Notes under the pieces: model-generated
What the model was told of the DNA's origin: nothing
Seen by the model: the letters and a program-made list of their open reading frames with translations, nothing else
Database searches by the model: none
Translations under genes and position numbers: made by a program
Part shown: positions 33,324 through 53,983 of the stretch, piece after piece
Layout: the number at the start of each line of letters is the position of its first letter
Numbering within the stretch: the first letter of the stretch is position 1
Assembly (NCBI GenBank): GCA_963677745.1
Contig: OY782391.1
Location: 1,216,001 to 1,280,000, forward strand
Origin: Candidatus Altimarinota bacterium
Lineage (GTDB): Bacteria; Patescibacteriota; Gracilibacteria; UBA1369
Length of the DNA stretch: 64,000 nt
Reading direction: 5' to 3'

Positions 33324-36300
33324 GTGAGAAAAAAAACTGATAGAATATTGTCGCGCTATATTAACCGCAGACACGGCCCCAAATTTATACTGGTAGCCAT
33401 GTGTCTTCTTGTTACAGTTTTCTTCCAGATGAGCCAGATAGCTCTGGCCTCTGGAGTAAACAAATGGGCCAGCCTTTTGCAGGTCAGCAACTCCTACTCA
33501 TCCCACAATAATGTCATAGTTCCCACTTCCGACGGCAAATACATTATCGTCTGGGCTCAGGAAGTTAGCTGGGATGATGATCTGTATGCCATGAAAATCG
33601 AAAACCTGGGATCATCCGGACAAAACGTCTGGGGAGCACCTGTACAGCTTACCAACCTCTCCGGCAGTGAACCGGATCAGGAGGGGGGCCTCTCTGTGGT
33701 AGCGGATGGCAGTGGTGGGGCGTATATCGCTTACCGCCGCAACGGACCAGATGTTTATGTCCAGCACATCGACAGCAGTGGAGCGATCTGGCAAATGAAC
33801 GGAGAAAAAATGTATTACGATTCCACGGTGGAAAACTGGGAGACCCAGCCCAGTTTATTGTATGACTCTACATCGGGCGGCGTCTACGTAGCCTGGCATG
33901 ATGCTCAGTCCTTCGGCAGTTTCAATAATTATGTTTACCTGAGCCGACTTGGCAGTAGCGGCAGCGTTCATGCCAACTGGAATACCGGAGACGGCGACCC
34001 CAATCACACCTATCGTCCCGTCAGAGTAGGGACTTCGGATAACGCTGAACGTCCATTTCTGATCGATAATGCCGCTGACCTGCCTTTAGTCACTACCATG
34101 AATCTCGATGCCACCAGGTCTGTCACGGCATTCAGGTATAGCGCGACCGGAGCCCCGAGCTGGGGGCCTACCACCATCACGGATGCCAATAATATGTATA
34201 ACAATTCCGACACTTACATTGCTGTTCCCGACGACAATGATGGTATCTATCTGGCTTACGAATCTTTGACCGACGAGGTTCACGCTGTCCAAATCAGCAA
34301 TTCCGGAGCTGTCGGCTGGAATTCCACGGTGTTTACGCCGGGAGCGGAGGAACAGCTGGATTCAGCTTCTTACATTCATGGTATCAATGATGGCGACGGG
34401 AACTTCATGGTAGTTTGGGGAGTACAATCCACTTCAGATTTTTCCTACGACCTCTTTACCCAAAAAGTGAATTCCAGCGGTTCGGCTTTGTGGAATGAAG
34501 GCACTCCCTACCAGGTCTTCGACGACCCTTCAAAAGGCAATAGAATGCTAAAAGATAACAACTATTCGATTGTGAGTGACGGTCAGCAGGGACTGATCGT
34601 TGCTGCCTACAAGTTTTCACAGAACAAAGTCAATCTTCAACATCTACTCAGTGACAGCACCAGGGATTATGGGGACTGGAATTATGTAATGCCCTATTCG
34701 AGTTACTATCACTCTATTGCTCCGGATGGGCAGGGGGGCGCAATCATTTCCTACAATATCAGCAGAATATATGCGCAGCGTTATAATAATCCCGCGCCCG
34801 CCGCACCTTTCAGTCTTACCGCCGATTATCAGGCGGGAGGCGGAGTTCATCTGGAATGGGCAGGTTCCTATAGCCCTCCAGCCACCTTCAGAATTTATCG
34901 TTCAACCAGCCAGGGAGGCCCCTATGCATTCCTGGACGACAGCGCAACAGACACCTATGACGACCTCACTGCGGAAGGCGGCATTCCCTATTATTATGTG
35001 GTCAGGGCTTACAGAGGAGGGGAAGAAAGCACCAATTCCAACGAAGCATCAATTATTCTGACGGCTCCCGCATCTCCGCAGAATGTTGGAGGTGAGTCGG
35101 GCAATCAGACCACTCATATCTATTGGGACGCCTCAACCGGTGCGGACAACTATGACGTCTATCGTTGTGAGACGGCAGTATGTGACTATCCCCTGGATCT
35201 CGTGAGGATTGCTGAGGGGGTGGCTGATTTATTCTATAACGATTCTGCACTATCCAACGGGACTGAATATACTTACTCGGTCAAGGCAGCCAATTTGTAC
35301 GGGGATAGTGAATATAGTGCATCGGTTGATCTGATGCCTACTGCAGGAGGGCCCTCTCCATCAATTTCTTATACAATTGAGAACTTCACCTGGATTGGTG
35401 CCACCAATGTAAATATCGAAATATTTGGGCAGAATCTTGATAATGCAATCAGCGTTAATGTCGGAGGTGAAAATTGTAGTATTTCTGTAAACCAGACAGA
35501 TTATATCACCTGCCAGTTAGCCAATGTCCCTGCAATAGCCGGAAACAGCAGTCTCAACCTTTTTACACCCAATGGCCCGGTATCTGTATCATTTTATATC
35601 TACGGCCCTCCCAGCGTTTCAGACATGACTCCGGTTTCAGGTTTCTCTACCGGCGGAACTCCGGTAACAATTTATGGAAGTGGTTTTGGCTGGAACACAG
35701 TGGTGGAATTTAATGGTAATCCTGCCAATGTCGTGGATATATTTACCGATGCCATCGAAGTAGAAACACCGGCAGGCACAGCCGGTCAGACAGTTCCGGT
35801 GATTGTAACCAACCCAGGAAATCAGACCGCCTCTGCAGGTAATTTTACCTATGTTGCTGCTCCGGTTCCACCGGGAGAATGGTGGAAGCACGGAATAACA
35901 GGAGACGGATTGATTATCTCGGATTATCCGGACGGAGACGTTCCCTATCAGTTCGACCCGCAGGCAATCAGGACCTCGGACGGTCATTATCTGTCGGTCT
36001 GGGTAGATGATCGGGAAGATTCAACCAGTCATTTGTATGCCAAAAAGATCAATGAGACCGATGGAAGTTCCTTTGCGGGATGGCCGGACAACGGCCTGGC
36101 TGTAACCAGCTTTAATCTGCCGGTGCCCAGCGAAAATACCGAAAACTTCAGCCTGTATTCAGACAATGCCGGAGGCGCCTATGTAATTTTTGACTATGTG
36201 GACGGCAGCGGACAAGAACTGGTCTATGCTCAAAGATTGTCTTCGGCAGGAAGCCGTTTATGGACCGACACAGGTGTGGCAATCGAAACCCCTCTATCAG

Positions 36301-37889
36301 GTCACGACCGGAGTATTTATGGAGCAGCCGGCAGCAACGCTGCCGACGGTCTATATGTCAGCTGGAGCAGACTGGACAGCGGTTTTAACTTTGAAGATTT
36401 TTACCTGACCAGACTCAATGCCAACGATGGTTCTACAGCTTTCTCTCCGCTGATTATAGACAGCGGCAATACTACGGATGAGGGCAATACGCAGCTCGGT
36501 GTCGACAGCAACAACAACGCCATGTTCTTGTATACCAAGACCGGCAATCTTGCTCTTGCCAGTTCAAGAATTTCACCATCCGGAACAGTCACACCAGGTC
36601 CTGTCATTCAATCCGGCCAGGAAGATTATGATTTTACGGCATATTTCTATGCGATAATGGCCAGTGATGGGCAGGATGGCTACTTTATCACATATTTGGG
36701 CATCAACAGCTCGGATGAAACTGAACTGAGGGCCAGAAGAATTTTGTCCGGTCTCACCCTGGACAGCAATTGGCAAGTCAATAACGCAGGTGATTTAACC
36801 GGTATTCAACTGGCCAATAATATACAGGGAATTGAGAATATGAATATAGTCGGGGACGGAAGCCAGGGTGCTTACTTCGTCTGGGATCAGTTTGTTGGGG
36901 CGGGTAAGGAAGGTGCTTATGATATATATGGCCAATATGTTGGATCCGATGGACAAAAGAACTGGGGTGGTGGTGACGGAGTAGGTCTTAGTGATACTGG
37001 AGATGATGTCGATCAGTTTTTGACTTACGAGGGAAATGTAGCCATATCTGATAATAACGGAGGATTTATTTACACCTACTTCGACGAAAACTGGGAATCA
37101 CAAATCGGGCCAAGTGTTTTTGCACAAAGGGTTGCCAATGATATTGACAACTATGAAAACCTATGGCCGATCGCCTCACCTGATACTGTCGGCTATGATC
37201 TCGGCGGCCTCACTTCTGGACGGGATCGGAAACCGGTGCTGGTCAGTGACGGAGCGGTTGGCGCAGCTGTTTTCTGGATTGGATATGATGAAAACACCGA
37301 ATACTACGATCTCTATGGTCAATACCTGACAGGCCAGGAGGAAGCCGGTGGCGGAGGAGAGTGTCTCGCCGGGCCCGGACAAACCTGCGGAGAGATTACT
37401 ATCGGATGTAACCTCGGTGGAACAATTTCCATCAGCAATATTACGCCGGAGGCCACTTTTGAACCCCGCTCTACCAACTTTTATCAGGATCCCACCAACG
37501 CACCCCTGGATAGTAACATCCAGGTGGACATAACTGACACACGCGGTTATGGAAGTTGTGGCGATGCTTCAACATTATCAATACAGAGCACAGGCTTGGT
37601 CCTGGGATCCTCAACACTGGGACTGAGTCTTGGAACTGCTTTGACGCAGGGAAACATCACTTGTCCTGGCGACAATTGTGTACCAGATTCCGCCCATCTT
37701 TCAGATGTAGCTACAACCCCCGGAACAACCGGCAGCATCGCCACTGGTGCTGACGTGTTAAACCTTTCAGAGGGCTTTGACGGTACAATCAGACTGCAAT
37801 TCAGCAGCAACAACCTGGAAGTGGTAAAGCCATCCAGCCCGATCAGCAAAGGTGATTATGTCGGAGATATAATCTTTACATTGATCTAA
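33324..37889 (+). CDS. large secreted surface protein 1: propeller-like repeats, 2 FN3, 2 IPT/TIG, second propeller, WxL-like C-terminal cassette
   Basis: Signal ...SQIALA; repeated (S/A)DGxGGAxxxW and IYAQ; FN3 FRIYRS...YYYVVRA; IPT GGTPVTIYGSGF; ends GDYVGDIIFTLI. Confidence 0.85.
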   Translation: MRKKTDRILSRYINRRHGPKFILVAMCLLVTVFFQMSQIALASGVNKWASLLQVSNSYSSHNNVIVPTSDGKYIIVWAQEVSWDDDLYAMKIENLGSSGQNVWGAPVQLTNLSGSEPDQEGGLSVVADGSGGAYIAYRRNGPDVYVQHIDSSGAIWQMNGEKMYYDSTVENWETQPSLLYDSTSGGVYVAWHDAQSFGSFNNYVYLSRLGSSGSVHANWNTGDGDPNHTYRPVRVGTSDNAERPFLIDNAADLPLVTTMNLDATRSVTAFRYSATGAPSWGPTTITDANNMYNNSDTYIAVPDDNDGIYLAYESLTDEVHAVQISNSGAVGWNSTVFTPGAEEQLDSASYIHGINDGDGNFMVVWGVQSTSDFSYDLFTQKVNSSGSALWNEGTPYQVFDDPSKGNRMLKDNNYSIVSDGQQGLIVAAYKFSQNKVNLQHLLSDSTRDYGDWNYVMPYSSYYHSIAPDGQGGAIISYNISRIYAQRYNNPAPAAPFSLTADYQAGGGVHLEWAGSYSPPATFRIYRSTSQGGPYAFLDDSATDTYDDLTAEGGIPYYYVVRAYRGGEESTNSNEASIILTAPASPQNVGGESGNQTTHIYWDASTGADNYDVYRCETAVCDYPLDLVRIAEGVADLFYNDSALSNGTEYTYSVKAANLYGDSEYSASVDLMPTAGGPSPSISYTIENFTWIGATNVNIEIFGQNLDNAISVNVGGENCSISVNQTDYITCQLANVPAIAGNSSLNLFTPNGPVSVSFYIYGPPSVSDMTPVSGFSTGGTPVTIYGSGFGWNTVVEFNGNPANVVDIFTDAIEVETPAGTAGQTVPVIVTNPGNQTASAGNFTYVAAPVPPGEWWKHGITGDGLIISDYPDGDVPYQFDPQAIRTSDGHYLSVWVDDREDSTSHLYAKKINETDGSSFAGWPDNGLAVTSFNLPVPSENTENFSLYSDNAGGAYVIFDYVDGSGQELVYAQRLSSAGSRLWTDTGVAIETPLSGHDRSIYGAAGSNAADGLYVSWSRLDSGFNFEDFYLTRLNANDGSTAFSPLIIDSGNTTDEGNTQLGVDSNNNAMFLYTKTGNLALASSRISPSGTVTPGPVIQSGQEDYDFTAYFYAIMASDGQDGYFITYLGINSSDETELRARRILSGLTLDSNWQVNNAGDLTGIQLANNIQGIENMNIVGDGSQGAYFVWDQFVGAGKEGAYDIYGQYVGSDGQKNWGGGDGVGLSDTGDDVDQFLTYEGNVAISDNNGGFIYTYFDENWESQIGPSVFAQRVANDIDNYENLWPIASPDTVGYDLGGLTSGRDRKPVLVSDGAVGAAVFWIGYDENTEYYDLYGQYLTGQEEAGGGGECLAGPGQTCGEITIGCNLGGTISISNITPEATFEPRSTNFYQDPTNAPLDSNIQVDITDTRGYGSCGDASTLSIQSTGLVLGSSTLGLSLGTALTQGNITCPGDNCVPDSAHLSDVATTPGTTGSIATGADVLNLSEGFDGTIRLQFSSNNLEVVKPSSPISKGDYVGDIIFTLI
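37350..37889 (+). repeat. C-terminal cassette repeat, copy 1 (~540 bp)
   Basis: Near-identical to 44325-44864, 51161-51700 and 53390-53929. Confidence 0.95.
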
Positions 37890-37902
37890 GTAATAAACAA
37901 TC

Positions 37903-37937
37903 AAAAAATACCGACGGAATTTCCGTCGGTATTTTTT
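37903..37937. terminator. bidirectional intrinsic terminator
   Basis: AAAAAATACCGACGGAA-T-TTCCGTCGGTATTTTTT between convergent genes. Confidence 0.9.
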
Positions 37938-38661: not shown

Positions 38662-38676
38662 AAATGTATATCTTGC

Positions 38677-38711
38677 GTGGTTTTAACGCCGGACCGACAT
38701 CCGGCTCCCAC
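38677..38711 (-). promoter_or_regulatory. putative L1-binding autoregulatory site upstream of rplA
   Basis: GTGGGAGCCGG-loop-CCGGCGTTAAAACCAC matches the GGGAG.../CGUUA..ACC internal-loop pattern of L1 operator RNAs. Confidence 0.75.
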
Positions 38712-38727
38712 AAAAATAAATAATAAA

Positions 38728-39150: not shown

Positions 39151-39161
39151 TGTTTTGATGA

Positions 39162-40559: not shown

Positions 40560-43500
40560 ATGAAAACAAAAAAAATATTCTCTAAACGATTTCTGCATAA
40601 ATATTTTGACCATATCAGGAAAATGGAGATGCGGGATCTACTTATTGCCTTGGCGGTGACGGTAATGTTGGTATCTATATCGCTGGCGGCGGGTCAGGGA
40701 CAATGGCCCAACACCAGTTCTCCTTCAGCTGTCCAACTAATGAATGGCGGCTGGGAGTCCCGGGGAGTAAGAACCAGCGATGGGAATTATATAATCGGTA
40801 TGATTGCCAACAATGTTGGTTTACAAAAATTAAATTCAGCAGGCAGCAAACTCTGGAACGGCGGAGACCCGATTGATATACCCGATTCCTACGCTGTAAA
40901 CGAAATTGTCGCAGATTCATCTGGTGGGGCCTTTGTCCTTTATGAGGGCACAAGCATAGGCAGCAGCAATAAATATATTAGGCACGTCGACGGCAGCGGT
41001 AATGAGCTCTGGACTGTCGGTCCGTTTGATTCAACGGAAGATAGCGAAAATAGTCCCAGAATACTTAACGACGGGAATGGCGGTCTGTATCTTGCCTGGT
41101 ATCGGTCTGACATGTCTGGGTACATCACCCATTTAGGCGCAGACGGTGATGTTTGTGATGTGGCCACCTGCGGTTATTCCTGGAATCCGGGAGGACCCGG
41201 CACCTATCGTGAGAAAGCTTTCCCAACTACCGGCAGCGTTAGTCCAGAACCCAAATTAATTCTCTCTGATTCAGGCAGCGTAATAGTTTCTTATATGGTG
41301 GACGCTGGTATCGACGTTACCAAATTTAATGCCGATAGCAGCTTTGCCTGGAGTCTGCCTGCAAGCTACCAGTCAATCATTGATCAGAATTACCTGATGA
41401 TGGCCGAGTCGGATGGTAATAACGGTATAAATATTGCCTATTGGAATAATGAAGGGGAAAATACCAATCTGATGATGTCCAGAGTTCTGTCCACGGGAGC
41501 TTTTTCTTTTGCGCCGAATAGCCTGACCATAAAAACTATCGATAATACAGCCCTGTATACCGGCAGTATGGCCAGTTCATCCGACAGCAGCGGCAATATG
41601 TATCTGGCCTGGCAGCAAGCCGACGTGGCCACGGACGAAACGGATACCTACGTCCAAAAGATAAATGCGTCCGGAGTAGAACAGTGGACCTCGGGTGGAG
41701 TTCTGATGGGTACCCTGGGCGACGGAATAAGCGATTATATCGAAAATTCATATCTTTATAATTTACCCCATACCATTGTTGCCGATGGTACCGGCGGTGC
41801 CATTGTAGCCATGAACCGAAACCAGAATATGGTTGGCGGCATGGTGGTTGGCCAAAGGGTATTAAACAACGGTAATTTGGATTGGGGCATAGGTTATTCA
41901 CTTACCAACAATCCCTTTGTGGACAGTGATGACATGCCGGATATAATCAGTAACGGATCAGGCGGGGCATTGTTCAGCTGGCATCAGTGGACAAACAGTG
42001 GAGAATTTGTGTCAGCTCAATTGGTTCAGTCCGCAGCACTTGGTCTGAATGTAACCGAGGTGCTGGATAGCTCCGTTCCGACACGGGGAGGTCAAATTGT
42101 AAACATCAAAGGCAGTGGTTTTATCAGTGGTGCCACAGTGGACATAGGCGGCTCAGCAGCCACAGATATTATTGTTCTGGCTGACAATGTACTGTTGGCC
42201 ACCGTGCCGGGCCATGCCATGGGGTTGGCTGATGTTTCTGTAACCATTCCCGGTCCGTCATCGTACATCCTAAACAATGGCGTGAACTATATTAATCCAA
42301 CGCCCGCGCTTAATTATTGCAGCGGTGGTTTCAGTAAAATCGATTATGACAGCGGACATGGCATAGCTTTGGCCATGGACGGCAGCGTCTGGACCTGGGG
42401 CAGTAATATTAATGGGCAGCTCGGTGACGGTACAACGACCGACCGCCAGGCTCCTGTAAAGATCAGCGGTCTGACCGATGTGATTGATGTTAAAGTAAAT
42501 TATAACACTTCGTATGTACTCAAAAGCGACGGAACCGTCTGGGCCTGGGGAAAGAACACCAGCGGCGAAATCGGCGACGGTACCTACACTGACAGGCATG
42601 CACCGGTACAGATCACTTCCCTGAGCAATATGACGCAGATTGAACCGATAGGGAATTGGGTTGTCGCCTTGAAAGGGGACGGCACGGTCTGGAGCTGGGG
42701 TTATAACGGATACGGGCAACTTGGTAACGATTCGATGGCCGAAAACAGCAATGTTCCAGTTCAGGCCACAGGATTGACAGGAGTACAAAAAGTTTTCGGA
42801 GAATTTGAAACCGCCTACGCCATCAAAACAAACGGAACAGTCTGGGGTTGGGGCTACAACTACTATGGACAGGTAGGTAATGGAACCACTGGCTTTTACC
42901 AGAGAACCCCGGTACAGGCAACTGGTATAACCACCGCGACAGATTTACATGCCGGCTTATATCACGTAGTGGTAAAACTAAGTGATAACACACTAATGGC
43001 CTGGGGAAAAAATGATGAGGGAGCGGTGGGTGACGGTACAACTACCAACCGTACAACCCCGGTACCGGTTAATGGGCTGACCGATATAGTCAAAGTAGAG
43101 GCGGCAACCAGTTCTCACAACCTGGCCCTGAAAAGTGACGGAACAATCTGGGCTTGGGGTCGCAATGAGGCCGGCACTATCGGTGACGGTACAAATATAC
43201 AGCGTAATTCACCCGTGCAGATAACCACTCTTACCAACGTATCTGATATTTTTTCTTACGAGCACACTGCCTTTGCCATCAAGAATGATGGAACTGCCTG
43301 GGGTTGGGGCTCGAACGGTACTGCCATGCTGGGTGACGGAACATATACGGACAGTAACGTTCCGATACAAATCCATAATCTGAGTAACGTAACTTATCTG
43401 CACGGCGATTTCTATAATATGGTGGCTCTTGAGGAGGATAACAGTGCCTATGGCTGGGGAGATACTTTCGATCCTTGGCTCGGCGCCGGAAACAACTATG

Positions 43501-44864
43501 GCTTCAATAGTTATGAGCCCGCCAGAATTTCGGGTACCGCCTGCAGTACGGTAATCGACCCGGTTCAGGGGTCAATTGGAGGTGGCACAGCAGTAACCAT
43601 AACCGGTGATAACTTCTACGATGGGGCTTCGGTAACATTTGACGGTCTTCCTGCTACTGATGTCACAGTCGTGGACATGGGAACAATTACGGCCACGTCT
43701 CCTGCGCATGCTGCCGGGGTGGTCAGCTTTTCGGTCACCAATCTGGACGGTCAGTCGGAAACATATGCCAACGGCTTCGAGTACAGCGGCGTGACGCCCA
43801 CGGTGACTGATGTATCACCGGCAAGTGGGCCGGCCTCCGGAGGAACAATGGTTTTAATTACAGGAACTGGATTTACAGGGGCCACTAGTGCATCGTTCGG
43901 AGGCTCGACTTGCAATGCGTTTAGTGTAATGGATGATACCTCAATTGAATGCGAAACTTCCGCTCATCATCCAGGTGCTATCATAGTCTCTGTAACAGGT
44001 CCTAATGGTACCGGAATGGGGCCGGGGCTATTTACTTACAATGCGGGAGGTCCCGCGCCGACTGGTGTGACTGCGACCCCCGGCAATGAACAGATTACTT
44101 TGAACTGGGATAACATGCCTGATGCCACGGGGTATAACATCTATAGGGTTATGGGCGGGGAACTGCCTTTATTTGTTCTCGAAGATACAGGAGGACCAAT
44201 TGTTATCAACAGCTATACTGTCACCGATCTGCCTAACAACATGGAAAGAAGATATGTGGTTACAGCGATTTATGCAGGAGGTGAAAGCGACTACAGCGAT
44301 CCGCCGGTTAGGGCAACGCCCACTGCCGGAGGAGGTTGTGTGGCCGGCCTCGGAGAGACCTGCGGAGAGATCACCATCGGATGTAATCTCGGCGGGACAA
44401 TCTCCATCAGCAATATTACGCCGGAGGCCACTTTTGAACCCCGCTCTACCAACTTCTATCAGGATCCCACTAACGCCCCCCTGGAGAGTGTTATCCAGGT
44501 GGACATAACTGATACACGCGGTTATGGAAGTTGTGGCGATGCCTCAACATTATCAATACAGAGCAGCGGCTTGGCTCTGGGAGCTTCCACACTGGGACTC
44601 AACCTTGGTACTGCTTTGACGCAGGGAAGTATCACCTGTCCGGACGACAATTGTGTACCTGATTCAGCCCATCTGTCAGATGTAGCCACAACTCCTGGAG
44701 CAACCGGCAGCATCGCCACCGGTGCTGACGTATTAAACCTTTCAGAGGGCTTTGACGGTACAATCAGACTGCAAATCAGCGGTGATAACCTGGAAGTGGT
44801 AAAACCGCTGGAGCCGATCAGCAAAGGTGATTATGTCGGAGATATCACTTTCACGCTAATCTAA
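40560..44864 (+). CDS. large secreted surface protein 2: propeller, IPT, RCC1-like repeats, 2 IPT, FN3, WxL-like cassette
   Basis: RCC1 repeats DGTVWAWGxNxxGQLGDGT; IPT GGTAVTITG; ends GDYVGDITFTLI. Confidence 0.88.
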   Translation: MKTKKIFSKRFLHKYFDHIRKMEMRDLLIALAVTVMLVSISLAAGQGQWPNTSSPSAVQLMNGGWESRGVRTSDGNYIIGMIANNVGLQKLNSAGSKLWNGGDPIDIPDSYAVNEIVADSSGGAFVLYEGTSIGSSNKYIRHVDGSGNELWTVGPFDSTEDSENSPRILNDGNGGLYLAWYRSDMSGYITHLGADGDVCDVATCGYSWNPGGPGTYREKAFPTTGSVSPEPKLILSDSGSVIVSYMVDAGIDVTKFNADSSFAWSLPASYQSIIDQNYLMMAESDGNNGINIAYWNNEGENTNLMMSRVLSTGAFSFAPNSLTIKTIDNTALYTGSMASSSDSSGNMYLAWQQADVATDETDTYVQKINASGVEQWTSGGVLMGTLGDGISDYIENSYLYNLPHTIVADGTGGAIVAMNRNQNMVGGMVVGQRVLNNGNLDWGIGYSLTNNPFVDSDDMPDIISNGSGGALFSWHQWTNSGEFVSAQLVQSAALGLNVTEVLDSSVPTRGGQIVNIKGSGFISGATVDIGGSAATDIIVLADNVLLATVPGHAMGLADVSVTIPGPSSYILNNGVNYINPTPALNYCSGGFSKIDYDSGHGIALAMDGSVWTWGSNINGQLGDGTTTDRQAPVKISGLTDVIDVKVNYNTSYVLKSDGTVWAWGKNTSGEIGDGTYTDRHAPVQITSLSNMTQIEPIGNWVVALKGDGTVWSWGYNGYGQLGNDSMAENSNVPVQATGLTGVQKVFGEFETAYAIKTNGTVWGWGYNYYGQVGNGTTGFYQRTPVQATGITTATDLHAGLYHVVVKLSDNTLMAWGKNDEGAVGDGTTTNRTTPVPVNGLTDIVKVEAATSSHNLALKSDGTIWAWGRNEAGTIGDGTNIQRNSPVQITTLTNVSDIFSYEHTAFAIKNDGTAWGWGSNGTAMLGDGTYTDSNVPIQIHNLSNVTYLHGDFYNMVALEEDNSAYGWGDTFDPWLGAGNNYGFNSYEPARISGTACSTVIDPVQGSIGGGTAVTITGDNFYDGASVTFDGLPATDVTVVDMGTITATSPAHAAGVVSFSVTNLDGQSETYANGFEYSGVTPTVTDVSPASGPASGGTMVLITGTGFTGATSASFGGSTCNAFSVMDDTSIECETSAHHPGAIIVSVTGPNGTGMGPGLFTYNAGGPAPTGVTATPGNEQITLNWDNMPDATGYNIYRVMGGELPLFVLEDTGGPIVINSYTVTDLPNNMERRYVVTAIYAGGESDYSDPPVRATPTAGGGCVAGLGETCGEITIGCNLGGTISISNITPEATFEPRSTNFYQDPTNAPLESVIQVDITDTRGYGSCGDASTLSIQSSGLALGASTLGLNLGTALTQGSITCPDDNCVPDSAHLSDVATTPGATGSIATGADVLNLSEGFDGTIRLQISGDNLEVVKPLEPISKGDYVGDITFTLI

Positions 44865-45094: not shown

Positions 45095-48000
45095 ATGCTA
45101 CAGCCAAAAATCATCCACACAGCGAAAAAGCTTCACTGCCATATTAAAACACATGGTTTCAAATACCTGGCCGGTTTGGCTGTTTTTTCTATACTGACCA
45201 CGGCCTTTGTCTATCGTCCATCCCAGACTCCAACTGCCAAAGCCGCGGCCAGCTATCTATGGAATACAATGTTGAATCCCGAAAACGCAACATATGAAGA
45301 TAGTGCAAAAGTGGTTCGAACATCATCTGGAAATTATTTTGTAGCCTGGGAAGAATCAGTGGCCTATGATTCAACAGACGACATAAAAATGGCCAAAATC
45401 GATGTCGATGGCAATCTAATCGGATCAATTATAACCGTAACGAACAGCGCTGCTAATGACGAAAATCGCGTGCAATTGGCTCCCGATAATTCAGATGGTG
45501 TTCAAATAGTGTTTACTACAGAGGCAGATGTTTATGCAGCTCATTACAATTCCAGTGGTAGTCTGACTTGCAGCAATGCAATATACCGGGGAAACGTGAA
45601 TCCTGGCGGTGGTGGAAACAAGGAACAAGTGGCAATGGAGACAATTCCCCAATTGCTGCACGATGGAAATGGTGGAATGTATTTTAGCTGGATTTTATAT
45701 GATGGTAACTGGCGGACCTATGTCACACACCTCGGTTCGGATTGCAATATGGACAGTGCCTGGAATCCCACGGTTACCAACTATGGTCCGTTCAAAGTTA
45801 TTGAAGCGTTAAACGTCGATGGCAGTAGCTTTAAAATGACTAGTGGCGGCAATAATGCCATGATCTGGACCGGTGATGATAGTGCATCAAATTATCTTAT
45901 TACTAACAAAATAGATAATACCGGTGCCTATGTGACCGGCTGGACAGGTACAAAATATGTATATACAGGATCAAGTACTTCTTCCGCTCACACAATTGCG
46001 TCGGATGGCAGTGGGGGATTGGTTGTGGCACACCAGGATTCAGCCGCCCTAATGGTGCATTTAACACACCTTAATTCCGATGGAACGGCAGATACTAATT
46101 GGGGCGGAACAGGAACGATTGACGTCTTAGACACTCCCTCAAATAGTCTGAATTGGGCCAGAGTAATTAACGATGGTACCAACAACTTCATTGTAACCTG
46201 GACTCGTGGGGAGGCGGGGCCTATCTACCACCAGTATATCCAAAAAGTATCCGGTTCTGATGGCCAATTACTTTGGGGAGCAGGCAGTCCGATAGAGGTT
46301 ATTTCGTCTGATACTAACGCACTGGCATCGGGCTCCACGGATAGTATTGTTCCGGACACTCACGGAGGTGCCTACCTGAGTTATACTACTTTTATGTGGG
46401 GATACAGACGCATACAAAACGTTAAATCTGACGGGTCGCTTGATTTTGGCAATATGGGTTATATGGATGGCCGCATATCAAATGGGTGGGAGCCCACCCT
46501 GGTTGTCGATGGGAGCGGAGGAGTGATAGCCGTTAGAACAGAACAATCTGATGCGCCTGATTTTGACTGGGATATTTTTGCGGAACGAATTGAGTCTGTC
46601 CCACAGATCGATTATGTCTCTCCAAACTATTCCTATATTGACGCTAACAATGTTATTATTACAATTTCGGGCAGCAGTCTGGCCGACATGACTACTGCCA
46701 CAGTCGGCGGTGAGCCCTGTACTCTTATTACCAAATCATCTTTTTCGTATGAATGCGAAGTAGCCACTATGTCCCATACGGCAGGATTGGTTGATGTATA
46801 TTTGGAAGGTCCTTCTGGCAACACTGGCTCCTCGGGAAATAATCTTTTTCAAATATATGGCCCACCAACTGTTACGGGTATGTCTCCCAACCATGGCAGT
46901 CCTGTTGGGGGGACCGAAATTACCATCAATGGTGACGGTTTTGGACCCGAGACCACAGTTTCATTCGGCCCAACCCTGGCCAATATTAGTACCTCATCGA
47001 GTGACAGAATTAATTTAACCTCCCCTGAAGGTACCCCAGGAGTTGTTGCAGTAACCTTAACCAATCCTGGAAATCAGACTGTTTCAGCAGGGGACTTTAC
47101 CTACGACGCATATCCCAGAGAAGGAGCATGGTCTGTCAATAATATATTGAAGGATGGTTATCCTGATATAACACAACTGTCCAAACAAAATCCATATATT
47201 ATCAAAGCCTCTGACGGTAATTATATTGCTGCCTGGACGCGTTACGGATCTGATATGGACCAGGACATTATTGTACAAAAGATTGATCAGACGGATGGTC
47301 ATTCCATCTGGCCTGACGATGGCGGGGGGAATGGCGGTATGCAAATAACCGACCTGGATGCCACAACCTACAGCCAGAATATTCAAACATATTCACATCC
47401 CAACCTGATAGCGGATAACAGTGGCGGTGCGTATTTTATCTTCAGGGAAGATCACTCATCTGTCGGCGGCGGACTAGATTTGATGATTCAACATGTCAGG
47501 GCTGACCATTCGTTACAATATGGACCTAATCCGCTTAATCTGACCAACAATTTGTCCGGTGTTGAAAATGACACCTACAATATCATCAGTGATGGCGCAG
47601 GCGGAGTATATGTCGGTGGATCAAACATTGATTGGAATACCGAGGAAAGACACGTTTTTGCCATGCGAGTTGCCTCTGATGAAACAGTCACTCCTATGCA
47701 GCCCAGTGGAGGAAATTTCCCTATTGGATCGCAAAGTCCGGCATTAGCGCTGGATAGTAGCCAGAACCTCTATGTAGTCTATAAAGTAATACAACCAGGC
47801 ACATCCACACACACCATCGAAGCACAAAGGTTTGCTCCCGACGGCACCAAACCGGGCGTCGGGCTGGATTGGCATGACACATTTAACATGCCATTGGTGG
47901 CCGGTGAAGAAATATATTCTCATGAAATAGCGGTTGATAGCAGCAATAATATTATTGTGATTTATAGCTCTTATGTAGATCCGGTTTCCAGGGTTGCGGC

Positions 48001-51000
48001 CCAAAAGATTAGCAGCGATGGCAGTTCCAGCTCCTGGTTTACTCCAGGCGTCGGAGGAACAGCGCTGGTTGCCTCAACAACAAATCCGGGGAGCCTGCAA
48101 ATCGTGCCCGATGGAGCGGATGGTGCCATAGCTGCCTGGAATGAAGGTAATAATGGAATAATCTATGCCCAGAAAATCAACACCGGCGGAGTGACGCAAT
48201 GGGGCGCTGATGCTCTTCAGGTTTCCAGCGGAACAAGGTGGGATTCTTTGTCAATAGTGAATTCAATTACTTCGGATGGAGCTGGAGGAGTTATATTGGC
48301 ATACTCGAGCGACCAGATCACGTTGCAGAAAATAGATAGCTCAGGTGCTCTACAATGGCCCGAAGCTGCGCCAGGTACCAGTGGTTATACAAGTTTCAGT
48401 GAATATACCAATAACATGGATCAGAATCCGGCCCTTGTAGGTGATGATCTCGGGGGGGCGGTAGTAGTCTGGATGGGTAGAACTATGATCGGCTGGGACA
48501 GCTACGACAATGTCTATGCCCAACATTATCAAATAGACAATACTCCGGTGCCGCTCAGCGTAGACCCGGCTTTGGGAAGTCCGGCAGGGGGTACCAATAT
48601 CACCATCAGCGGTATTCATTTTATCGATGGTGGCACTACGGTAACCGTTGGTGGATTAGCCTGCCAAAACATCGTAGTTAATTCCCCGCGTGAATTAACC
48701 TGTGACACCCAGGCACATGAAGCTGGAACTGTTGATGTCTCTGTGACAACCATTAATGGCACATCTACATTGACCGGAGGTTATGAATATGGTGAACCTG
48801 TGATTGTTCCTGAAGGAACGATTGAATTACATATTGCTGACAGCGTCATCGGATCCAATAGTGATACCGGTGCCGGTATTTCCAATGGAGATGACGCAGG
48901 AGGGCTTGCAGATCTTGATTTTACCGGTGCTCCCGCTACCGCTCCAGACACTTTTTCAGGTGCAGAGATATATACATTTAATTCCGGTGTTCCAACCATG
49001 AATCCGACCGCGTTAAATATTGAAAATCTGGACGGATTTGATTTAACTGGAGCTGATAGTATTCACCTTTCCAATGAGGATGACCTGATTAGTACGGTTG
49101 TCCCACTTGGTTTTACAACCAAAATATATGGACGCGATGTTGATTCCGTTGTTGTCGACTCCAACGGTCTTGCCTATCTGAATACCAGTGCCGATATGTC
49201 TGTAAATGATAGCAGTTGTTGCAACGGTTACAGCATGTCAAATTACACCGGAGTCGATTGGCCTGCCTCTGTCGACGGGTCTGCAACAGGAGACATAATG
49301 ATTGCGGCGAAATGGACTGATCTCCTGCCGCAAGCAAATCCAGGATCTGCAATTACCTATTCTACAGACGGAGTGGCACCAAACCGCCGTTTTGTAATTA
49401 CCTTTGCGGATGTTCCGTATCTTGATCCGGACACGACTCAAAATACATTTCAGATAAAAATTCTCGAGTCGGGGCCTGGGAGCGGCGTTACTGTTACCAA
49501 CGTTTTACCTGCCTCCGGCACTGACGCAGGAGGAACCCCCGTTTTGATTACAGGAACAGGTTTCACGGGAGCAACTGCCGTCTACTTTAAAACTGGGGTA
49601 GATCCCGAACCGGGAACGGCCTGTATAAATTTACTTGTTATAAACGACACACAAATCGAATGCGAAACCGGAGCGCATGGAGCTGCTTTGGTCAACGTCA
49701 AAGTCGTCACGCCGGGCGGAGAAGGAATCGGAAACGGCTTATACACATATACTGGAGCGGCCGGTGGCGTCCCTACAGACCTCTGGGGATCAATCAAACA
49801 GGTGGAGGGCAACGGAACCAATCAATATTTTGCTCCATTTATCTCAAAAACTAACGATAATAATTACATTATTGCTTATGCGGATTCTACTCTTGGTACG
49901 GGAAACGGGGAAATAGTTGCCGAAAAAATCAATGCCACCACTGGTGCAGATATGTGGGCCAGTCCGGTACAGGTTTCCACTAATGCCAGTATGGACATGA
50001 GCAAAACCATCCAAATGATTCCCAATGCCAGCGGAGGAGTTTTCATGGCGTGGCAAAATGTCAATGGGGACATATTGTTGCAGAGTATTGATGGCTCCGA
50101 CGGGGCATTATTATGGGATGCTGTAAACATTTCAGAATCTTTTAATGCTGACAGCAAACCGGTGATGGTTTCCGATAATGCCGGAGGAGTCTATCTGGCC
50201 TTTGTAAGACACTTCCCGGAAGGACGCTGGGGAATCGATAAAACAGAAGTCACTCGCGTCAATGCAGAAGGAACCGTCCACTCAGACTGGAATACTGGCG
50301 GCATCGGCAATTACCGTCTCTTTCTGGTTGATCATGGTATTGGTTCTTTGCGAACTATTAAGACTAACTCAGACAATGACCTTTTTGTTCTGACAGCCCA
50401 GGGGTCCATTGCCTACGTTGACAAACTAGTATCCACCGGACAGACAGACCCCGATTTCCCTTCGGTCAGCACTAGCTTAATGGGAGATTCAGATGGCGAA
50501 ATATCAGATATCATTGTAAATACCTCGGGAGGAGTAACCCTCTTTTATGAATCTCAAATGTTTATTGGATGGCCAACCTATCATGTTTCGGCAATCAGCT
50601 ACAATGATACCGGTAACATCAATTGGGCTCATTATTCTGTTACGGCAAACAGTTATGACAATCGGGCGGAAGATGATATTGCAGATCTTCATGTACTGGA
50701 CATGGGAGCACAACAATTGATTGCCTATGAATTCAGTAATGACAATAAAATATATGCCCAGAAAATAGATGCCACCACCGGGGAACCGATTTGGGCTGCT
50801 CCTGTTTCGGTTACCGATTCCACTGATGATTCCAATGCCAGTTTCTATTCTTTATGGGGCAATGTAAAACTGGATGCAATGATCAAGGACACCGGTTCTG
50901 GTGCATTCTTCGTCTATACTTCACAGGGGGCAGACTTCTTCTATCGCGTTCATTTGCAGCATATAGATACTAACGGATTAAAGATATTTGGCTCGAATGG

Positions 51001-51700
51001 CTATGAGTTGGAATCTCTTCCTGGCCATAGCGATGACAATGCCCCTGCCATTGCAGGCAACAGTCTAAACGCGGGCGTCATAGCCTGGATGGGATATGAC
51101 AGTGATCTTAGTAATGCAACCTCAATCTATACCTTTGGTTTTGATTCCACACAAAGTGGAGGCGGCGGAGTATGTGGCGCCGGACCCGGAGAGACCTGTG
51201 GTGAAATCATAATTGGCTGTAACCTGGCAGGAACAATTTCCATCAGCAATATTACGCCGGAGGCCACTTTTGAACCCCGCTATACCAACTTCTATCAGGA
51301 TGCTACCAACGCACCACTGGAAAGTAACATCCAGGTGGATATAACTGACACACGGGGTTATGGAAGCTGTGGCAATCCCTCAACATTATCAATACAAAGC
51401 AGCGGCTTGGCTCTGGGAGCTTCCACACTGGGACTGAGTCTTGGCACTGCCTTGACGCAGGGAAATATCACCTGTCCGGACGACAACTGTGTACCAGATT
51501 CCGCCCATCTATCAGATGTAGCCACAACTCCTGGAGCAACCGGCAGCATCGCCACCGGTGCTGACGTATTAAACCTTTCAGAGGGCTTTGACGGTACAAT
51601 CAGACTGCAAATCAGCGGTGATAACCTGGAGGTGGTAAAACCGCTGGAGCCGATCAGCAAAGGTGATTATGTCGGAGATATCACTTTCACGCTGATTTAA
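45095..51700 (+). CDS. large secreted surface protein 3 (2201 aa): three propeller-like domains, about four IPT/TIG, NIDO-like segment, WxL-like cassette
   Basis: TM/signal; repeated SDGxGGxxxxW and IYAQKI; IPT GGTEITING; IAAKWTDL...NRRFVITF..V...NTFQIKI. Confidence 0.85.
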   Translation: MLQPKIIHTAKKLHCHIKTHGFKYLAGLAVFSILTTAFVYRPSQTPTAKAAASYLWNTMLNPENATYEDSAKVVRTSSGNYFVAWEESVAYDSTDDIKMAKIDVDGNLIGSIITVTNSAANDENRVQLAPDNSDGVQIVFTTEADVYAAHYNSSGSLTCSNAIYRGNVNPGGGGNKEQVAMETIPQLLHDGNGGMYFSWILYDGNWRTYVTHLGSDCNMDSAWNPTVTNYGPFKVIEALNVDGSSFKMTSGGNNAMIWTGDDSASNYLITNKIDNTGAYVTGWTGTKYVYTGSSTSSAHTIASDGSGGLVVAHQDSAALMVHLTHLNSDGTADTNWGGTGTIDVLDTPSNSLNWARVINDGTNNFIVTWTRGEAGPIYHQYIQKVSGSDGQLLWGAGSPIEVISSDTNALASGSTDSIVPDTHGGAYLSYTTFMWGYRRIQNVKSDGSLDFGNMGYMDGRISNGWEPTLVVDGSGGVIAVRTEQSDAPDFDWDIFAERIESVPQIDYVSPNYSYIDANNVIITISGSSLADMTTATVGGEPCTLITKSSFSYECEVATMSHTAGLVDVYLEGPSGNTGSSGNNLFQIYGPPTVTGMSPNHGSPVGGTEITINGDGFGPETTVSFGPTLANISTSSSDRINLTSPEGTPGVVAVTLTNPGNQTVSAGDFTYDAYPREGAWSVNNILKDGYPDITQLSKQNPYIIKASDGNYIAAWTRYGSDMDQDIIVQKIDQTDGHSIWPDDGGGNGGMQITDLDATTYSQNIQTYSHPNLIADNSGGAYFIFREDHSSVGGGLDLMIQHVRADHSLQYGPNPLNLTNNLSGVENDTYNIISDGAGGVYVGGSNIDWNTEERHVFAMRVASDETVTPMQPSGGNFPIGSQSPALALDSSQNLYVVYKVIQPGTSTHTIEAQRFAPDGTKPGVGLDWHDTFNMPLVAGEEIYSHEIAVDSSNNIIVIYSSYVDPVSRVAAQKISSDGSSSSWFTPGVGGTALVASTTNPGSLQIVPDGADGAIAAWNEGNNGIIYAQKINTGGVTQWGADALQVSSGTRWDSLSIVNSITSDGAGGVILAYSSDQITLQKIDSSGALQWPEAAPGTSGYTSFSEYTNNMDQNPALVGDDLGGAVVVWMGRTMIGWDSYDNVYAQHYQIDNTPVPLSVDPALGSPAGGTNITISGIHFIDGGTTVTVGGLACQNIVVNSPRELTCDTQAHEAGTVDVSVTTINGTSTLTGGYEYGEPVIVPEGTIELHIADSVIGSNSDTGAGISNGDDAGGLADLDFTGAPATAPDTFSGAEIYTFNSGVPTMNPTALNIENLDGFDLTGADSIHLSNEDDLISTVVPLGFTTKIYGRDVDSVVVDSNGLAYLNTSADMSVNDSSCCNGYSMSNYTGVDWPASVDGSATGDIMIAAKWTDLLPQANPGSAITYSTDGVAPNRRFVITFADVPYLDPDTTQNTFQIKILESGPGSGVTVTNVLPASGTDAGGTPVLITGTGFTGATAVYFKTGVDPEPGTACINLLVINDTQIECETGAHGAALVNVKVVTPGGEGIGNGLYTYTGAAGGVPTDLWGSIKQVEGNGTNQYFAPFISKTNDNNYIIAYADSTLGTGNGEIVAEKINATTGADMWASPVQVSTNASMDMSKTIQMIPNASGGVFMAWQNVNGDILLQSIDGSDGALLWDAVNISESFNADSKPVMVSDNAGGVYLAFVRHFPEGRWGIDKTEVTRVNAEGTVHSDWNTGGIGNYRLFLVDHGIGSLRTIKTNSDNDLFVLTAQGSIAYVDKLVSTGQTDPDFPSVSTSLMGDSDGEISDIIVNTSGGVTLFYESQMFIGWPTYHVSAISYNDTGNINWAHYSVTANSYDNRAEDDIADLHVLDMGAQQLIAYEFSNDNKIYAQKIDATTGEPIWAAPVSVTDSTDDSNASFYSLWGNVKLDAMIKDTGSGAFFVYTSQGADFFYRVHLQHIDTNGLKIFGSNGYELESLPGHSDDNAPAIAGNSLNAGVIAWMGYDSDLSNATSIYTFGFDSTQSGGGGVCGAGPGETCGEIIIGCNLAGTISISNITPEATFEPRYTNFYQDATNAPLESNIQVDITDTRGYGSCGNPSTLSIQSSGLALGASTLGLSLGTALTQGNITCPDDNCVPDSAHLSDVATTPGATGSIATGADVLNLSEGFDGTIRLQISGDNLEVVKPLEPISKGDYVGDITFTLI
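51161..51700 (+). repeat. C-terminal cassette repeat, copy 3
   Basis: Near-identical DNA to the other three copies. Confidence 0.95.
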
Positions 51701-51907: not shown

Positions 51908-53929
51908 ATGAAAAAAATTAATAAAATATTCCTTGCTACCTTGCTGTTTGTATTATCAATTTCCATCGCTTTTGCGGACGGTGCCGGTCAGTGGCCAAAT
52001 ACAACTTCACCAGTACCAATGCAACTAATGCAGGAGGCCAATAGTACAGGTACCTACGGAGTCCGCACTTCCGATGGTAACTACATTATTGCCATGCAAA
52101 ACTATACCGGAATCAGTGCGCAGAAAATCGATTCCAGTGGAAATAAACTTTGGGGTGTCGGTGGAGAACCTGTTACTGTCACTGATCCGGCTGGTTGGTT
52201 TACGGAAATAGTTGCAGATAATGATGGGGGCGCTTTCATTACTTATACAAACATCAATACGCAGAATGTAGCAAGAATTGACAGCAGTGGAACGGTGCTC
52301 TGGCGTAGTGGTGATTTTGAACCGGGTAATTCAATAGAAAATTGGGGAAAAATTCTTCACGATGGAAATAATGGTGTTTACGTCTCGTGGCTTGGACACG
52401 ACTCAAACAATGATGTAGTCAGGGAAGTCACGCATTTGGGCCCGGACGGAAATGTGTGTACTATTGCCACTTGCGGTATCGATTGGAACAACGGAGGAAC
52501 TGGCACATTCAAGCCCGTAACTTTGCCAAAACCAGCCGGGGATGGAGTATGGCATTATCAGGCCAGGCTAATTCCTTCGGATTTGGGCAGTTTAATAGTG
52601 GTATACGGTGATTACTCGCCACGAGATAACGTTTATGCGACAAAATTGAATACCAACGGAACCTTCGCCTGGAACGCTCTTGATTATCGAATGATTGATG
52701 ACACCTACAACATTAGCTCTAATTCTTTCGCGGCAGAATCTGATGGAAGTAATGGAGTATATATCGGGTATCGGGTTAGCGACGGTACCAATGATTATTT
52801 AAAACTTGTTAAAATCAACTCGTCCGGAACCTTTACGCTTGGCACTGTTAACGGTGGGTCTGCCGAGGGAGTAGTGGTCAAGACTCTTGACAGAGCAATA
52901 GCATACATAGGTAATGATATGGTTAGTACTTCAGACGGCAATGGAAATTTATATTTGGGATGGAATGAACGGGATGTGGCAAGCGGTGTCTACGACACTT
53001 ATGTCCAAAAATTCAACAGTTCAGGTGTCGAACAATGGACCGCGGGTGGTAAATTATTGGGTACAATTGGTGATGATGTGGAAGACTCTTTCTGGAGCGA
53101 TACGATTAATATTCCTCATTCAATAGTCACAGACGGAAGTGGGGGAGCCATCATTGCCACCTCTAGATACAGTAATACTATTACCGAGGCAGTTGCCATG
53201 CAAAGAGTTTTAAGCAATGGAAGTCTGGACTGGGGAAGCGGATATATTGTTACAGCCGATATTGAAAATCATCAGGATGAATATCCGGATCTTGTTAGTG
53301 ATGGTACCGGAGGAGCTGTAGTTTCTTTCGTGCATATTGATGCTGATTGGAATTATTTTAGTAACGCTCAATATGTTAAAACAGCAGCTGCCGGAGGAGG
53401 TTGTGGGGCGGGTCCCGGTGAGACCTGTGGAGAGATCACCATCGGCTGTAACCTGGCAGGAACAATTTCCATCAGCAATATTACGCCGGAGGCCACTTTT
53501 GAACCCCGCTATACCAACTTCTATCAGGATGCTACCAACGCACCACTGGAAAGTAACATCCAGGTGGACATAACTGATACACGCGGTTATGGAAGTTGTG
53601 GCGATGCCTCAACATTATCAATACAAAGCAGCGGATTGGCTCTGGGAGCTTCCACACTGGAACTGAGTCTTGGCACTGCTTTGACGCAGGGAAACATCAG
53701 CTGTCCGGACGACAACTGTGTACCTGATTCAGCCCATCTTTCAGATGTAGCCACAACCCCCGGAGCAACGGGCAGCATTTCCACCGGTGCAGACGTGTTG
53801 AATCTTTCTGAAGGCTTTGACGGTACAATCAGGCTGCAATTAAGCGGTAATAACCTGGAGGTGGTAAAACCGCTGGAGCCGATCAGCAAAGGTGATTATG
53901 TCGGAGATATCACTTTCACTCTAATCTAA
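51908..53929 (+). CDS. secreted surface protein 4: single propeller-like domain plus WxL-like cassette
   Basis: Signal MKKINKIFLATLLFVLSISIAFA; N-domain paralogous to that of 40560 (GQWPNT, THLG.DG.VC..ATCG..WN). Confidence 0.87.
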   Translation: MKKINKIFLATLLFVLSISIAFADGAGQWPNTTSPVPMQLMQEANSTGTYGVRTSDGNYIIAMQNYTGISAQKIDSSGNKLWGVGGEPVTVTDPAGWFTEIVADNDGGAFITYTNINTQNVARIDSSGTVLWRSGDFEPGNSIENWGKILHDGNNGVYVSWLGHDSNNDVVREVTHLGPDGNVCTIATCGIDWNNGGTGTFKPVTLPKPAGDGVWHYQARLIPSDLGSLIVVYGDYSPRDNVYATKLNTNGTFAWNALDYRMIDDTYNISSNSFAAESDGSNGVYIGYRVSDGTNDYLKLVKINSSGTFTLGTVNGGSAEGVVVKTLDRAIAYIGNDMVSTSDGNGNLYLGWNERDVASGVYDTYVQKFNSSGVEQWTAGGKLLGTIGDDVEDSFWSDTINIPHSIVTDGSGGAIIATSRYSNTITEAVAMQRVLSNGSLDWGSGYIVTADIENHQDEYPDLVSDGTGGAVVSFVHIDADWNYFSNAQYVKTAAAGGGCGAGPGETCGEITIGCNLAGTISISNITPEATFEPRYTNFYQDATNAPLESNIQVDITDTRGYGSCGDASTLSIQSSGLALGASTLELSLGTALTQGNISCPDDNCVPDSAHLSDVATTPGATGSISTGADVLNLSEGFDGTIRLQLSGNNLEVVKPLEPISKGDYVGDITFTLI

Positions 53930-53983
53930 TCTGGAAAGTAATTACAGATATCAAAACAGCCCCGCCGTACGGCGGGGCTGTTT
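53390..53983 (+). repeat. C-terminal cassette repeat, copy 4, including 3' UTR and terminator
   Basis: Near-identical to copy 2 through the terminator. Confidence 0.95.
53953..53983. terminator. bidirectional intrinsic terminator (also ends nusG)
   Basis: AAAACAGCCCCGCCG-TA-CGGCGGGGCTGTTT. Confidence 0.9.

Follow-up and report, generated by a model that had tools for sequence, protein, structure and literature searches.

Four genes in a 64,000-nucleotide stretch of a Candidatus Altimarinota genome (contig OY782391.1, positions 1,216,001 to 1,280,000 of the forward strand; this whole stretch is called the window) encode large secreted proteins with diverged N-terminal payloads and a nearly uniform C-terminal cassette of about 180 amino acids (aa). 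The organism is an ultra-small, Peribacteria-like bacterium belonging to the candidate phyla radiation (CPR), whose members are thought to live attached to a host; its genome is a single contig (C1) of 1.336 Mb and is 97.9% complete. Our results suggest that the cassette probably serves for assembly into a donor-strand pilus like those of WxL/Elr and Pam and would thereby mount beta-propeller/TIG payloads on a thin surface fibre. This reading is supported by a paralogue encoded between chaperone genes, the confinement of a C-terminal motif, a predicted chaperone-cassette complex, kinship with WxL domains, the C-terminal position of the domain throughout its family, and the precedent of the Elr and Pam pili (Sleutel et al., bioRxiv 10.64898/2026.10.17.759780; Troman et al., bioRxiv 10.64898/2026.03.03.709456).

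A near-uniform cassette under divergent payloads

The four open reading frames (ORFs), all on the forward strand, encode proteins of 1521, 1434, 2201 and 673 aa (genes A to D), with the coordinates given by a first-pass annotation of this DNA. As read from the sequences, each protein starts with a hydrophobic, signal-peptide-like segment, and the cassette occupies its last ~178-180 aa, after a Gly-rich linker. In window coordinates, the main features are:

33324..37889, + strand: gene A, 1521 aa, secreted; two ~470-aa propeller-type modules, an fn3-like domain (below cut-off), TIG, then the cassette
37350..37886, + strand: cassette copy A, 88% aa identity to copy D
40560..44864, + strand: gene B, 1434 aa, secreted; propeller module, TIG, RCC1 propeller, two to three TIG domains, an fn3-like domain, then the cassette
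44325..44861, + strand: cassette copy B, 93% aa identity to copy D
45095..51700, + strand: gene C, 2201 aa, secreted; at least three propeller-type modules with TIG domains between them, then the cassette
51161..51697, + strand: cassette copy C, 94% aa identity to copy D
51908..53929, + strand: gene D, 673 aa, secreted; the minimal form, with one propeller module, Gly-rich linker and cassette
51980..53383, + strand: gene D payload (residues 25-492), beta-propeller by AlphaFold2 and Foldseek
53387..53926, + strand: cassette copy D, 180 aa, the reference for the model, the searches and the complex
53420..53449, + strand: donor-strand-like segment ETCGEITIGC, cassette residues 12-21, from the alignment and the model
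53891..53926, + strand: C-terminal strand GDYVGDITFTLI, cassette residues 169-180, the predicted partner, in parallel orientation, of the strand that the chaperone donates

The cassettes are pairwise 88-95% identical in aa sequence, and the payloads, where alignable by BLASTP, only 22-42%, so that similarity breaks sharply at the Gly-rich linker. These values bear out the earlier claim of four secreted proteins sharing a C-terminal cassette under diverged payloads. The additional statement that the copies are almost identical even at synonymous sites was too strong: DNA identity is 86-92%, and each pair differs synonymously at 30-38 and non-synonymously at 9-21 of 178 codons. Gene conversion, together with selection for a single partner (chaperone or pilin), probably keeps the cassette uniform among the four paralogues, whose payloads diversify quickly. 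As already described, the cassette lacks Trp and has six Cys, at positions 6, 14, 21, 71, 106 and 111 of the 180-aa piece. A whole-genome search found it in the four window genes, in one distant copy and nowhere else, a confinement that is not expected by chance.

Among the payload domains that had been proposed, IPT/TIG was recovered by Pfam in three proteins (E 5.7e-18 in gene A, 4e-36 in gene B and 6e-43 in four stretches of gene C) and RCC1 in the 1434-aa protein of gene B (E 3.5e-58, with WD40_RLD at 246 bits), but fn3 remained below threshold (17.5 and 18.3 bits against a cut-off of 25). Gene D matched no Pfam family. The recurring ~470-aa module with SDGxGGA-type repeats, which BLASTP finds repeated within gene A, had been called propeller-like. 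It is indeed a beta-propeller according to AlphaFold2, the model of the gene D payload being all-beta with four-strand blades (predicted local distance difference test, pLDDT, 83.1; predicted template modelling score, pTM, 0.87). The best Foldseek matches, 7roo (E 6e-10), 5mum, 4irt, 5mul and 6gxs, are glycan-acting propeller enzymes and lectins, plus CylK, with a TM-score of about 0.5; for the modelled payload they establish the fold and not a function.

An exhaustive phmmer search of 1.84 billion representatives returned 29 cassette-family proteins at E<=1e-3, ranging from ~200-aa secreted stand-alone forms to 2550 aa, with N-terminal parts from none to ~2370 aa. The domain is C-terminal in all 29, and the motif of its last strand stands at the C-terminal end in 29/29. 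Thirteen larger relatives carry differing payloads (TIG in 8, plus Kelch, SBBP/DUF7948, EPTP or fn3), in agreement with the first-pass idea of a constant C-terminal part beneath varying payloads. In the pattern [ST]-x-[GA]-x-x-x-[IV]-x-C, the ETCGEITIGC segment of the cassette aligns with the N-termini of the mature stand-alone pilins, and this segment would be, judging from the alignment, a donor strand. The family was found in few places. In a sample of 401 genomes of the phylum it was present in this genome and in none of the 400 others, 300 further genomes of the class gave one marginal fragment with an in-frame TGA and otherwise none, and two scans of metagenome contigs (with a 6-row alignment, then with a single protein) confirmed no relative.

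Fold of the cassette and its relation to WxL domains

AlphaFold2 with a 22-sequence alignment gave a confident all-beta model of the cassette (pLDDT 90.8, pTM 0.82), in which the first ~25 residues, including the ETCGEITIGC segment, are unstructured. The predicted fold is a pilin-like, truncated immunoglobulin (Ig) sandwich. Foldseek returned no structure at E<=1e-3 for this model; its weak top ranks were mostly chaperone-usher pilins (CfaE/CfaB, FimA, FimG, PapA). A profile search of PDB sequences with the cassette family gave only noise (best E 0.25).

The first-pass annotation had proposed a WxL/pilin-like module. We compared the family with 13 small Pfam-recognised WxL proteins from other genomes of the phylum. 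With signal peptides trimmed, hhalign gave a local score of 27.9 (E 1.1e-3) and a global score of 24.6 over 146 columns, and the alignment was collinear from the N-terminal strand through D-x-R-G to G-x-Y-x-x-x-T-F-T-L. Both scores lie above the maxima of 30 column shuffles (17.0 local, 7.5 global). A probability of 88%, obtained when signal peptides were kept, was discounted because the alignment then consisted partly of signal peptide. Moreover, one of 22 cassette-family members matched the Pfam WxL model PF13731 (E 0.0095), and 8 of the 30 ESM-Atlas clusters nearest to the cassette carry WxL. From this collinear profile similarity and the missing PF13731 match of the cassette itself, we regard it, on sequence grounds, as a distant WxL-like domain that fails the formal family definition. 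The proposal is thus upheld for the pilin-like Ig fold and the WxL resemblance, but not for membership of WxL as Pfam defines it. A C-terminal sorting tag like that of the type IX secretion system was also considered for the cassette, and nothing was found in its support.

A stand-alone pilin between DUF916-type chaperones

The fifth cassette copy (34% identity, E 1e-16) is a 212-aa secreted stand-alone protein at C1:687372-688010, the kind of small gene for which the first-pass annotation had advised a search. It is flanked, at distances of ~60-120 bp, by genes for a 400-aa and a 391-aa protein, each with a signal peptide, a WxLIP_PGBD domain (DUF916, PF06030), a second beta domain, one transmembrane (TM) helix and LysM. 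DUF916-type partners, also advised as a target, therefore flank the stand-alone copy, but the companion domain DUF3324 was not detected. PF06030 scores 25.6/28.0 bits for the 400-aa and 38.8/41.1 bits for the 391-aa protein, with a cut-off of 27.3. Over the genome, its matches to the DNA reach 41.9, 41.4, 41.1 and 28.0 bits above the cut-off, with one below; those to proteins are above it at 38.8, 39.4 and 39.4 bits and below it at 25.6 and 22.7.

The genome's five PF06030 genes all map to 663-691 kb, interleaved with genes for six secreted proteins (212 to 4593 aa) with G.Y...TFTL-like ends. When 4889 ORFs were scanned for a C-terminal G.Y...TFTL, 10 were found: the four window genes and six in the 664-690 kb cluster. 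A hidden Markov model built from WxL proteins of the phylum matched two of these six cluster C-termini, those of a 767-aa (E 5.7e-5) and a 1118-aa protein (E 1.2e-4). Each of the five DUF916-type proteins has, as read from its sequence, a single hydrophobic stretch after the second domain, and the second beta domain of the chaperones contains a conserved N-x-G-N motif in the alignment. Neither PapD_N (PF00345) nor usher (PF00577) gave a match at E<=1 in the genome.

Several observations concern this cluster. Pfam LysM follows the single TM helix in the three long DUF916-type proteins (C1:663154-664308, 686106-687308 and 688127-689302). With a cleaved signal peptide and basic residues immediately behind the helix, LysM would face the cytoplasm, an odd place for a module that binds peptidoglycan; LysM tails, some of them doubled, are present in many of 21 aligned CPR chaperone homologues. 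A 4593-aa ORF (C1:672312-686093) ends in a degenerate form of the C-terminal motif (GTYITTLVFDF...) and, from this sequence, may be a giant adhesin of the same system. Two proteins of 202 and 230 aa (C1:667654-668262 and 690016-690708) have one DUF916-like domain and a TM helix (22.7 and 39.4 bits) and are possibly minimal chaperones, or fibre terminators or anchors with a role analogous to that of PamR or ElrB. Directly 3' of the pilin/chaperone locus, C1:690731-692140 encodes an O-antigen-ligase-like membrane protein (Wzy_C, E 1.6e-21), which may link to fibre glycosylation or to the envelope. The genome has one sortase gene, and a regular-expression search gave one plausible LPKTG protein, at C1:861648-863228.

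Predicted complex between chaperone and cassette

Residues 41-308 of the 391-aa chaperone were modelled together with cassette copy D, each with its own alignment. The interface score ipSAE was 0.85 (0.84-0.85 in three runs), and the best of three controls had 0.45. The score mark applied is reached by 116 of 157 solved complexes and by 2 of 215 mismatched pairs, counts that hold only roughly here because custom alignments were supplied. The runs had at least 82% of contacts in common, with a partner pLDDT of at least 84.

In the predicted complex, chaperone strand 171-184 (SGFSVIMKARLLKP) has cassette strand 169-180 as its parallel and strand 32-41 as its antiparallel neighbour; the contacts of lowest error join chaperone residues 173-182 with cassette residues 171-179 in parallel and 173-177 with 38-34 in antiparallel orientation. 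A chaperone strand is thus predicted to be donated between the first and last strands of the cassette, that is, by donor-strand complementation, a geometry that would explain why the domain has to stand at the very C-terminus. The donated stretch 171-184 is the most conserved one among the 21 CPR homologues, with R180 near-invariant. Residues 1-23 of the cassette, including ETCGEITIGC, lie outside the predicted interface.

Proposed assembly and alternative readings

We propose that the cassette would act as a truncated Ig-like domain of the pilin type, with a groove between its first and C-terminal strands. This groove would first be filled by a strand of the membrane-anchored DUF916/WxLIP-type chaperone, encoded elsewhere in the genome, and the chaperone strand would then presumably be swapped for the N-terminal strand of the pilin or of another cassette protein. 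Beta-propeller/TIG/RCC1 payloads would in this way come to be mounted on a thin surface fibre. We infer that the proteins polymerise, where they stand in the fibre (at the tip or in-line) and that they help to attach the bacterium to a substrate or host cell. The first-pass annotation had mentioned capping of a fibre as an alternative, which is close to our present reading.

Several results weigh against a donor-strand pilus. The four window genes lie ~560 kb from the stand-alone copy and from any chaperone gene. No model of Pfam, even at E<=10, or of NCBIfam recognises the cassette, and neither Pfam WxL (PF13731) nor DUF3324/WxLIP_HBD (PF11797) has a match in the genome at E<=10. The hhalign probability was just 21-28% once signal peptides were removed. 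One control complex reached an ipSAE of 0.45, and such a score expresses model confidence and is not a measurement. Finally, an ElrB-like LPxTG terminator was not found near the DUF916 cluster in a scan by regular expression only.

The predicted complex might also be the end state. In such a static display, the cassette would remain permanently docked on the membrane-anchored DUF916-type protein, giving single tethered adhesins and no fibre, and the LysM tail on three chaperone-type proteins could serve anchoring. We consider this unlikely, although chaperone-cassette binding is the one interaction that our computations support, neither an LPxTG subunit nor any other terminator could be recognised in the vicinity of the cluster, and an arrangement of this kind is the earlier published model of WxL clusters according to the discussion in the available text of the Elr preprint (bioRxiv 10.64898/2026.10.17.759780). 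The payload-free 212-aa paralogue has the same N-terminal strand motif and resembles a shaft pilin, and a pilin of this type is conserved between two chaperone genes in two genomes. In addition, the donor-strand-like segment is retained in the four proteins and free in the predicted complex, and in Elr and Pam, the two experimentally studied systems, the chaperone complex is an intermediate as far as the accessible parts of both preprints describe it.

Two further readings fare worse. The cassette could be an unrelated Ig-like domain at the C-terminus (a tag for sorting or quality control in an unknown export route, or a recently duplicated structural spacer), its link to the DUF916 cluster being coincidental; this is very improbable in view of a paralogue placed exactly between chaperone genes in two genomes, a motif restricted to the DUF916 cluster and the four window genes, a complex prediction that is specific against controls, and a collinear WxL similarity. 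Least probable of all is the classical role, non-covalent binding of the bacterium's own or a host's peptidoglycan that would anchor the proteins in the wall, which the distant WxL relationship and earlier work recommend (in which a WxL region was enough for localisation at the surface and peptidoglycan was the ligand, as reported in the available part of bioRxiv 10.64898/2026.10.17.759780), since the WxL-motif Trp is missing, Pfam WxL is not matched and the predicted groove is occupied by a protein strand. The first-pass annotation had named such wall binding as one possibility; it is the older WxL model, which the Elr preprint revises, and it appears less likely here.

Within the donor-strand pilus that we favour, the four proteins may be incorporated along the fibre and not only at its tip, because the cassette keeps ETCGEITIGC and the proposed layout of the proteins is the order N-domain, donor-strand linker and truncated Ig described for Pam. 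We tentatively suggest, as a possibility rather than an expectation, that the four giants are polymerising subunits (payload, donor strand and acceptor domain) and form, jointly with one another and the 212-aa pilin, a heteropolymeric 'bottle-brush' fibre with several different propeller heads along its length. Gene conversion would then keep the docking cassette interchangeable, with payload genes turning over very fast. If true, an episymbiotic CPR bacterium would have at this locus a display system for recognising hosts that can be re-programmed rapidly.

Hypervariable adhesin genes within a conserved backbone

Gene context was compared in two genomes, the present one and a sister genome (G401), whose contig was the one relative that a single-protein search of genome contigs returned. 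The sister contig, from an uncultured Candidatus Peribacteria bacterium, is syntenic with the window; NusG is 98% identical and the flanking DNA 65-78% identical. It has no counterpart of gene A, and a single 861-aa cassette gene, with a 47% identical cassette, stands in place of B, C and D (13.4 kb). As the adhesin genes differ in an otherwise syntenic backbone, they form a hypervariable island. The sister genome keeps the chaperone-pilin-chaperone triad, the pilin being 36% and one chaperone 41% identical.

In the phylum sample of 401 genomes, PF06030 is above its cut-off in 93 (129 at E<=1e-4) and PF13731 in 10 (25 at E<=1e-3). Many PF13731 matches lie within about 1 kb of PF06030 (G329 C5 and C1, G339 C27, G261 C21, G060 C4, G073 C14 and G020 C8). 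Several Pfam-recognised WxL domains in other CPR genomes form the C-terminus of 300-600-aa proteins that share a conserved upstream module (…DAELRTDQDF.CNY…), a sequence pattern that suggests another 'payload plus WxL' family in the phylum. A literature search combining WxL with Patescibacteria and DUF916 with candidate phyla radiation gave no relevant paper.

In public metagenome contigs from four runs (two studies), the payloads were matched with 0 differences. The contigs end at or within each cassette, because assemblies break at repeats, and no alternative arrangement of the four genes was seen in them. An apparent backward joint (8578) was rejected: it came from cutting the stretch at 52900, the start of the gene D cassette fitting that of gene B. 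Partial alignments of metagenome contigs with much higher depth (up to ~1900) produce short 'skips' at window positions 42403-42700, inside gene B's RCC1 repeats; these contigs most likely derive from RCC1-repeat genes of other organisms and not from variants of gene B.

Genomic surroundings

Further features of the window are:

37903..37937, + strand: terminator-like hairpin 3' of gene A, 16 pairs
37960-38661, - strand: ribosomal protein L1
39162-39638, - strand: ribosomal protein L11
about 44889-44917: near-identical counterpart of the gene D hairpin, 3' of gene B
53954..53983, + strand: terminator-like hairpin 3' of gene D, 13 pairs
53997-54542, - strand: NusG

The region had first been drawn to position 53983, which takes in the last hairpin; gene D itself ends at 53929. 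The total numbers of terminators and promoters do not exceed those of shuffled sequences.

The usual nusG-rplK-rplA unit is interrupted here (window 37960-40431 and 53997-54542). A segment of 13.4 kb with the three forward-strand giant genes B, C and D separates nusG from a 260-aa ORF adjoining rplK, and rplK is parted from rplA by a DUF5671 gene; in the sister genome the split is the same, with one giant gene. The neighbourhood also encodes T4SS_pilin (PF18895), SLH and PKD proteins. Downstream of nusG (54865-63998) are four forward-strand genes: three with T4SS_pilin domains, in one case in a 1616-aa protein that also has PKD repeats, and a further, PKD-rich ORF that crosses the window edge. 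These genes are kept in the sister contig and represent a second surface-structure locus. The 957-aa protein encoded at 23957-26830 combines six FlgD_ig domains with SLH domains; as a surface protein anchored by S-layer homology, it fits a monoderm envelope with a wall.

Comparison with known systems

Classical chaperone-usher pili of Gram-negative bacteria carry two-domain tip adhesins such as FimH, PapG and CfaE. The likeness lies in a head that binds receptors, placed on a C-terminal pilin domain that lacks a strand, in donor-strand complementation by a chaperone, and in the best, though weak, structural matches of the cassette, which are these very pilins. In contrast, this genome has no PapD_N and no usher, the chaperone described here is membrane-anchored, and there is no sequence similarity.

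A second known system is the Elr/WxL pilus of Enterococcus faecalis. In the available parts of the preprint of Sleutel et al. (bioRxiv 10.64898/2026.10.17.759780), WxL proteins are pilins joined by donor-strand exchange, with ElrA as tip adhesin, ElrC/D as WxL pilins, ElrE as DUF916/DUF3324 membrane chaperone and ElrB as LPxTG base; a C-terminal WxL attachment module beneath variable payloads is described, and the older cell-wall-binding model of WxL is revised. The system is reported there as confined to Bacillota, from a screen of RefSeq reference proteomes that required PF06030, PF11797 and PF13731, with PF13731 at the gathering threshold (12 bits inside confirmed loci) and chaperone and pilin within 10 kb of each other on a single replicon; LPxTG base subunit and sortase were optional in the definition. 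The window proteins and the cluster resemble Elr in their large adhesins, whose N-terminal payload varies above a constant truncated-Ig module at the C-terminus, in small secreted pilins that have this fold and an N-terminal strand, and in chaperones with a DUF916 domain and a C-terminal TM helix. The chaperone strand is predicted here to run in parallel with the subunit's C-terminal strand, as the same text reports for ElrE-ElrD, and the T-x-G-x-I-x-I segment resembles the donor-strand consensus [S/T]-x-[G/A]-x-[V/I]-x-F given there. The 212-aa paralogue lies within 10 kb of a chaperone gene; the four window genes, ~560 kb away, do not. The differences are a CPR instead of a Bacillota host, the lack of detectable Pfam WxL and DUF3324, a cassette without Trp and with six Cys, adhesin genes 560 kb from the chaperones, no LPxTG base subunit seen near the cluster, a LysM tail beyond the TM helix of the chaperones, and adhesins that keep a donor-strand-like segment, whereas ElrA is described as lacking a donor strand.

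The Pam pilus of Ca. Mycosynbacter amalyticus comprises PamA/B/E pilins, PamC/D membrane chaperones, the PamT tip and the PamR anchor, with homologues mainly in Saccharimonadia and Microgenomatia, according to the accessible text of Troman et al. (bioRxiv 10.64898/2026.03.03.709456). Shared with it, on that description, are a CPR host, a donor-strand mode of assembly (predicted here) that needs no usher, a pair of membrane-anchored chaperones in each locus and paired cysteines. Judged by description, its N-domain, donor-strand linker and truncated Ig would correspond to payload, ETCGEITIGC and cassette, a layout consistent with the sequence and with the unstructured residues 1-25 of the cassette monomer model. 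The N-domains of Pam are single sandwiches of ~9 strands, in contrast to payloads of 490-2020 aa made of propellers and Ig spacers here. In their available parts, the Pam preprint does not mention Gracilibacteria, Peregrinibacteria, WxL or DUF916, and the Elr preprint mentions neither CPR nor Pam.

The window had first been thought to hold an undescribed system. The principle, however, is already present in these two preprints of 2026. What is new here is an unmodelled, Trp-less and Cys-rich family found in very few genomes, and the CPR lineage that carries it; four homogenised copies on fast-evolving giant genes, far from the chaperones and inside a ribosomal-protein cluster; a retained donor-strand-like segment; and LysM-tailed chaperones. 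The locus thus stands between the two systems, with Elr-like DUF916 chaperones in a CPR lineage for which Pam has not been reported in the text available. The four proteins evolve far faster than the surrounding genome and are candidates for host recognition, in which heads could be exchanged on one standard socket; this socket and its chaperone make a small pair.

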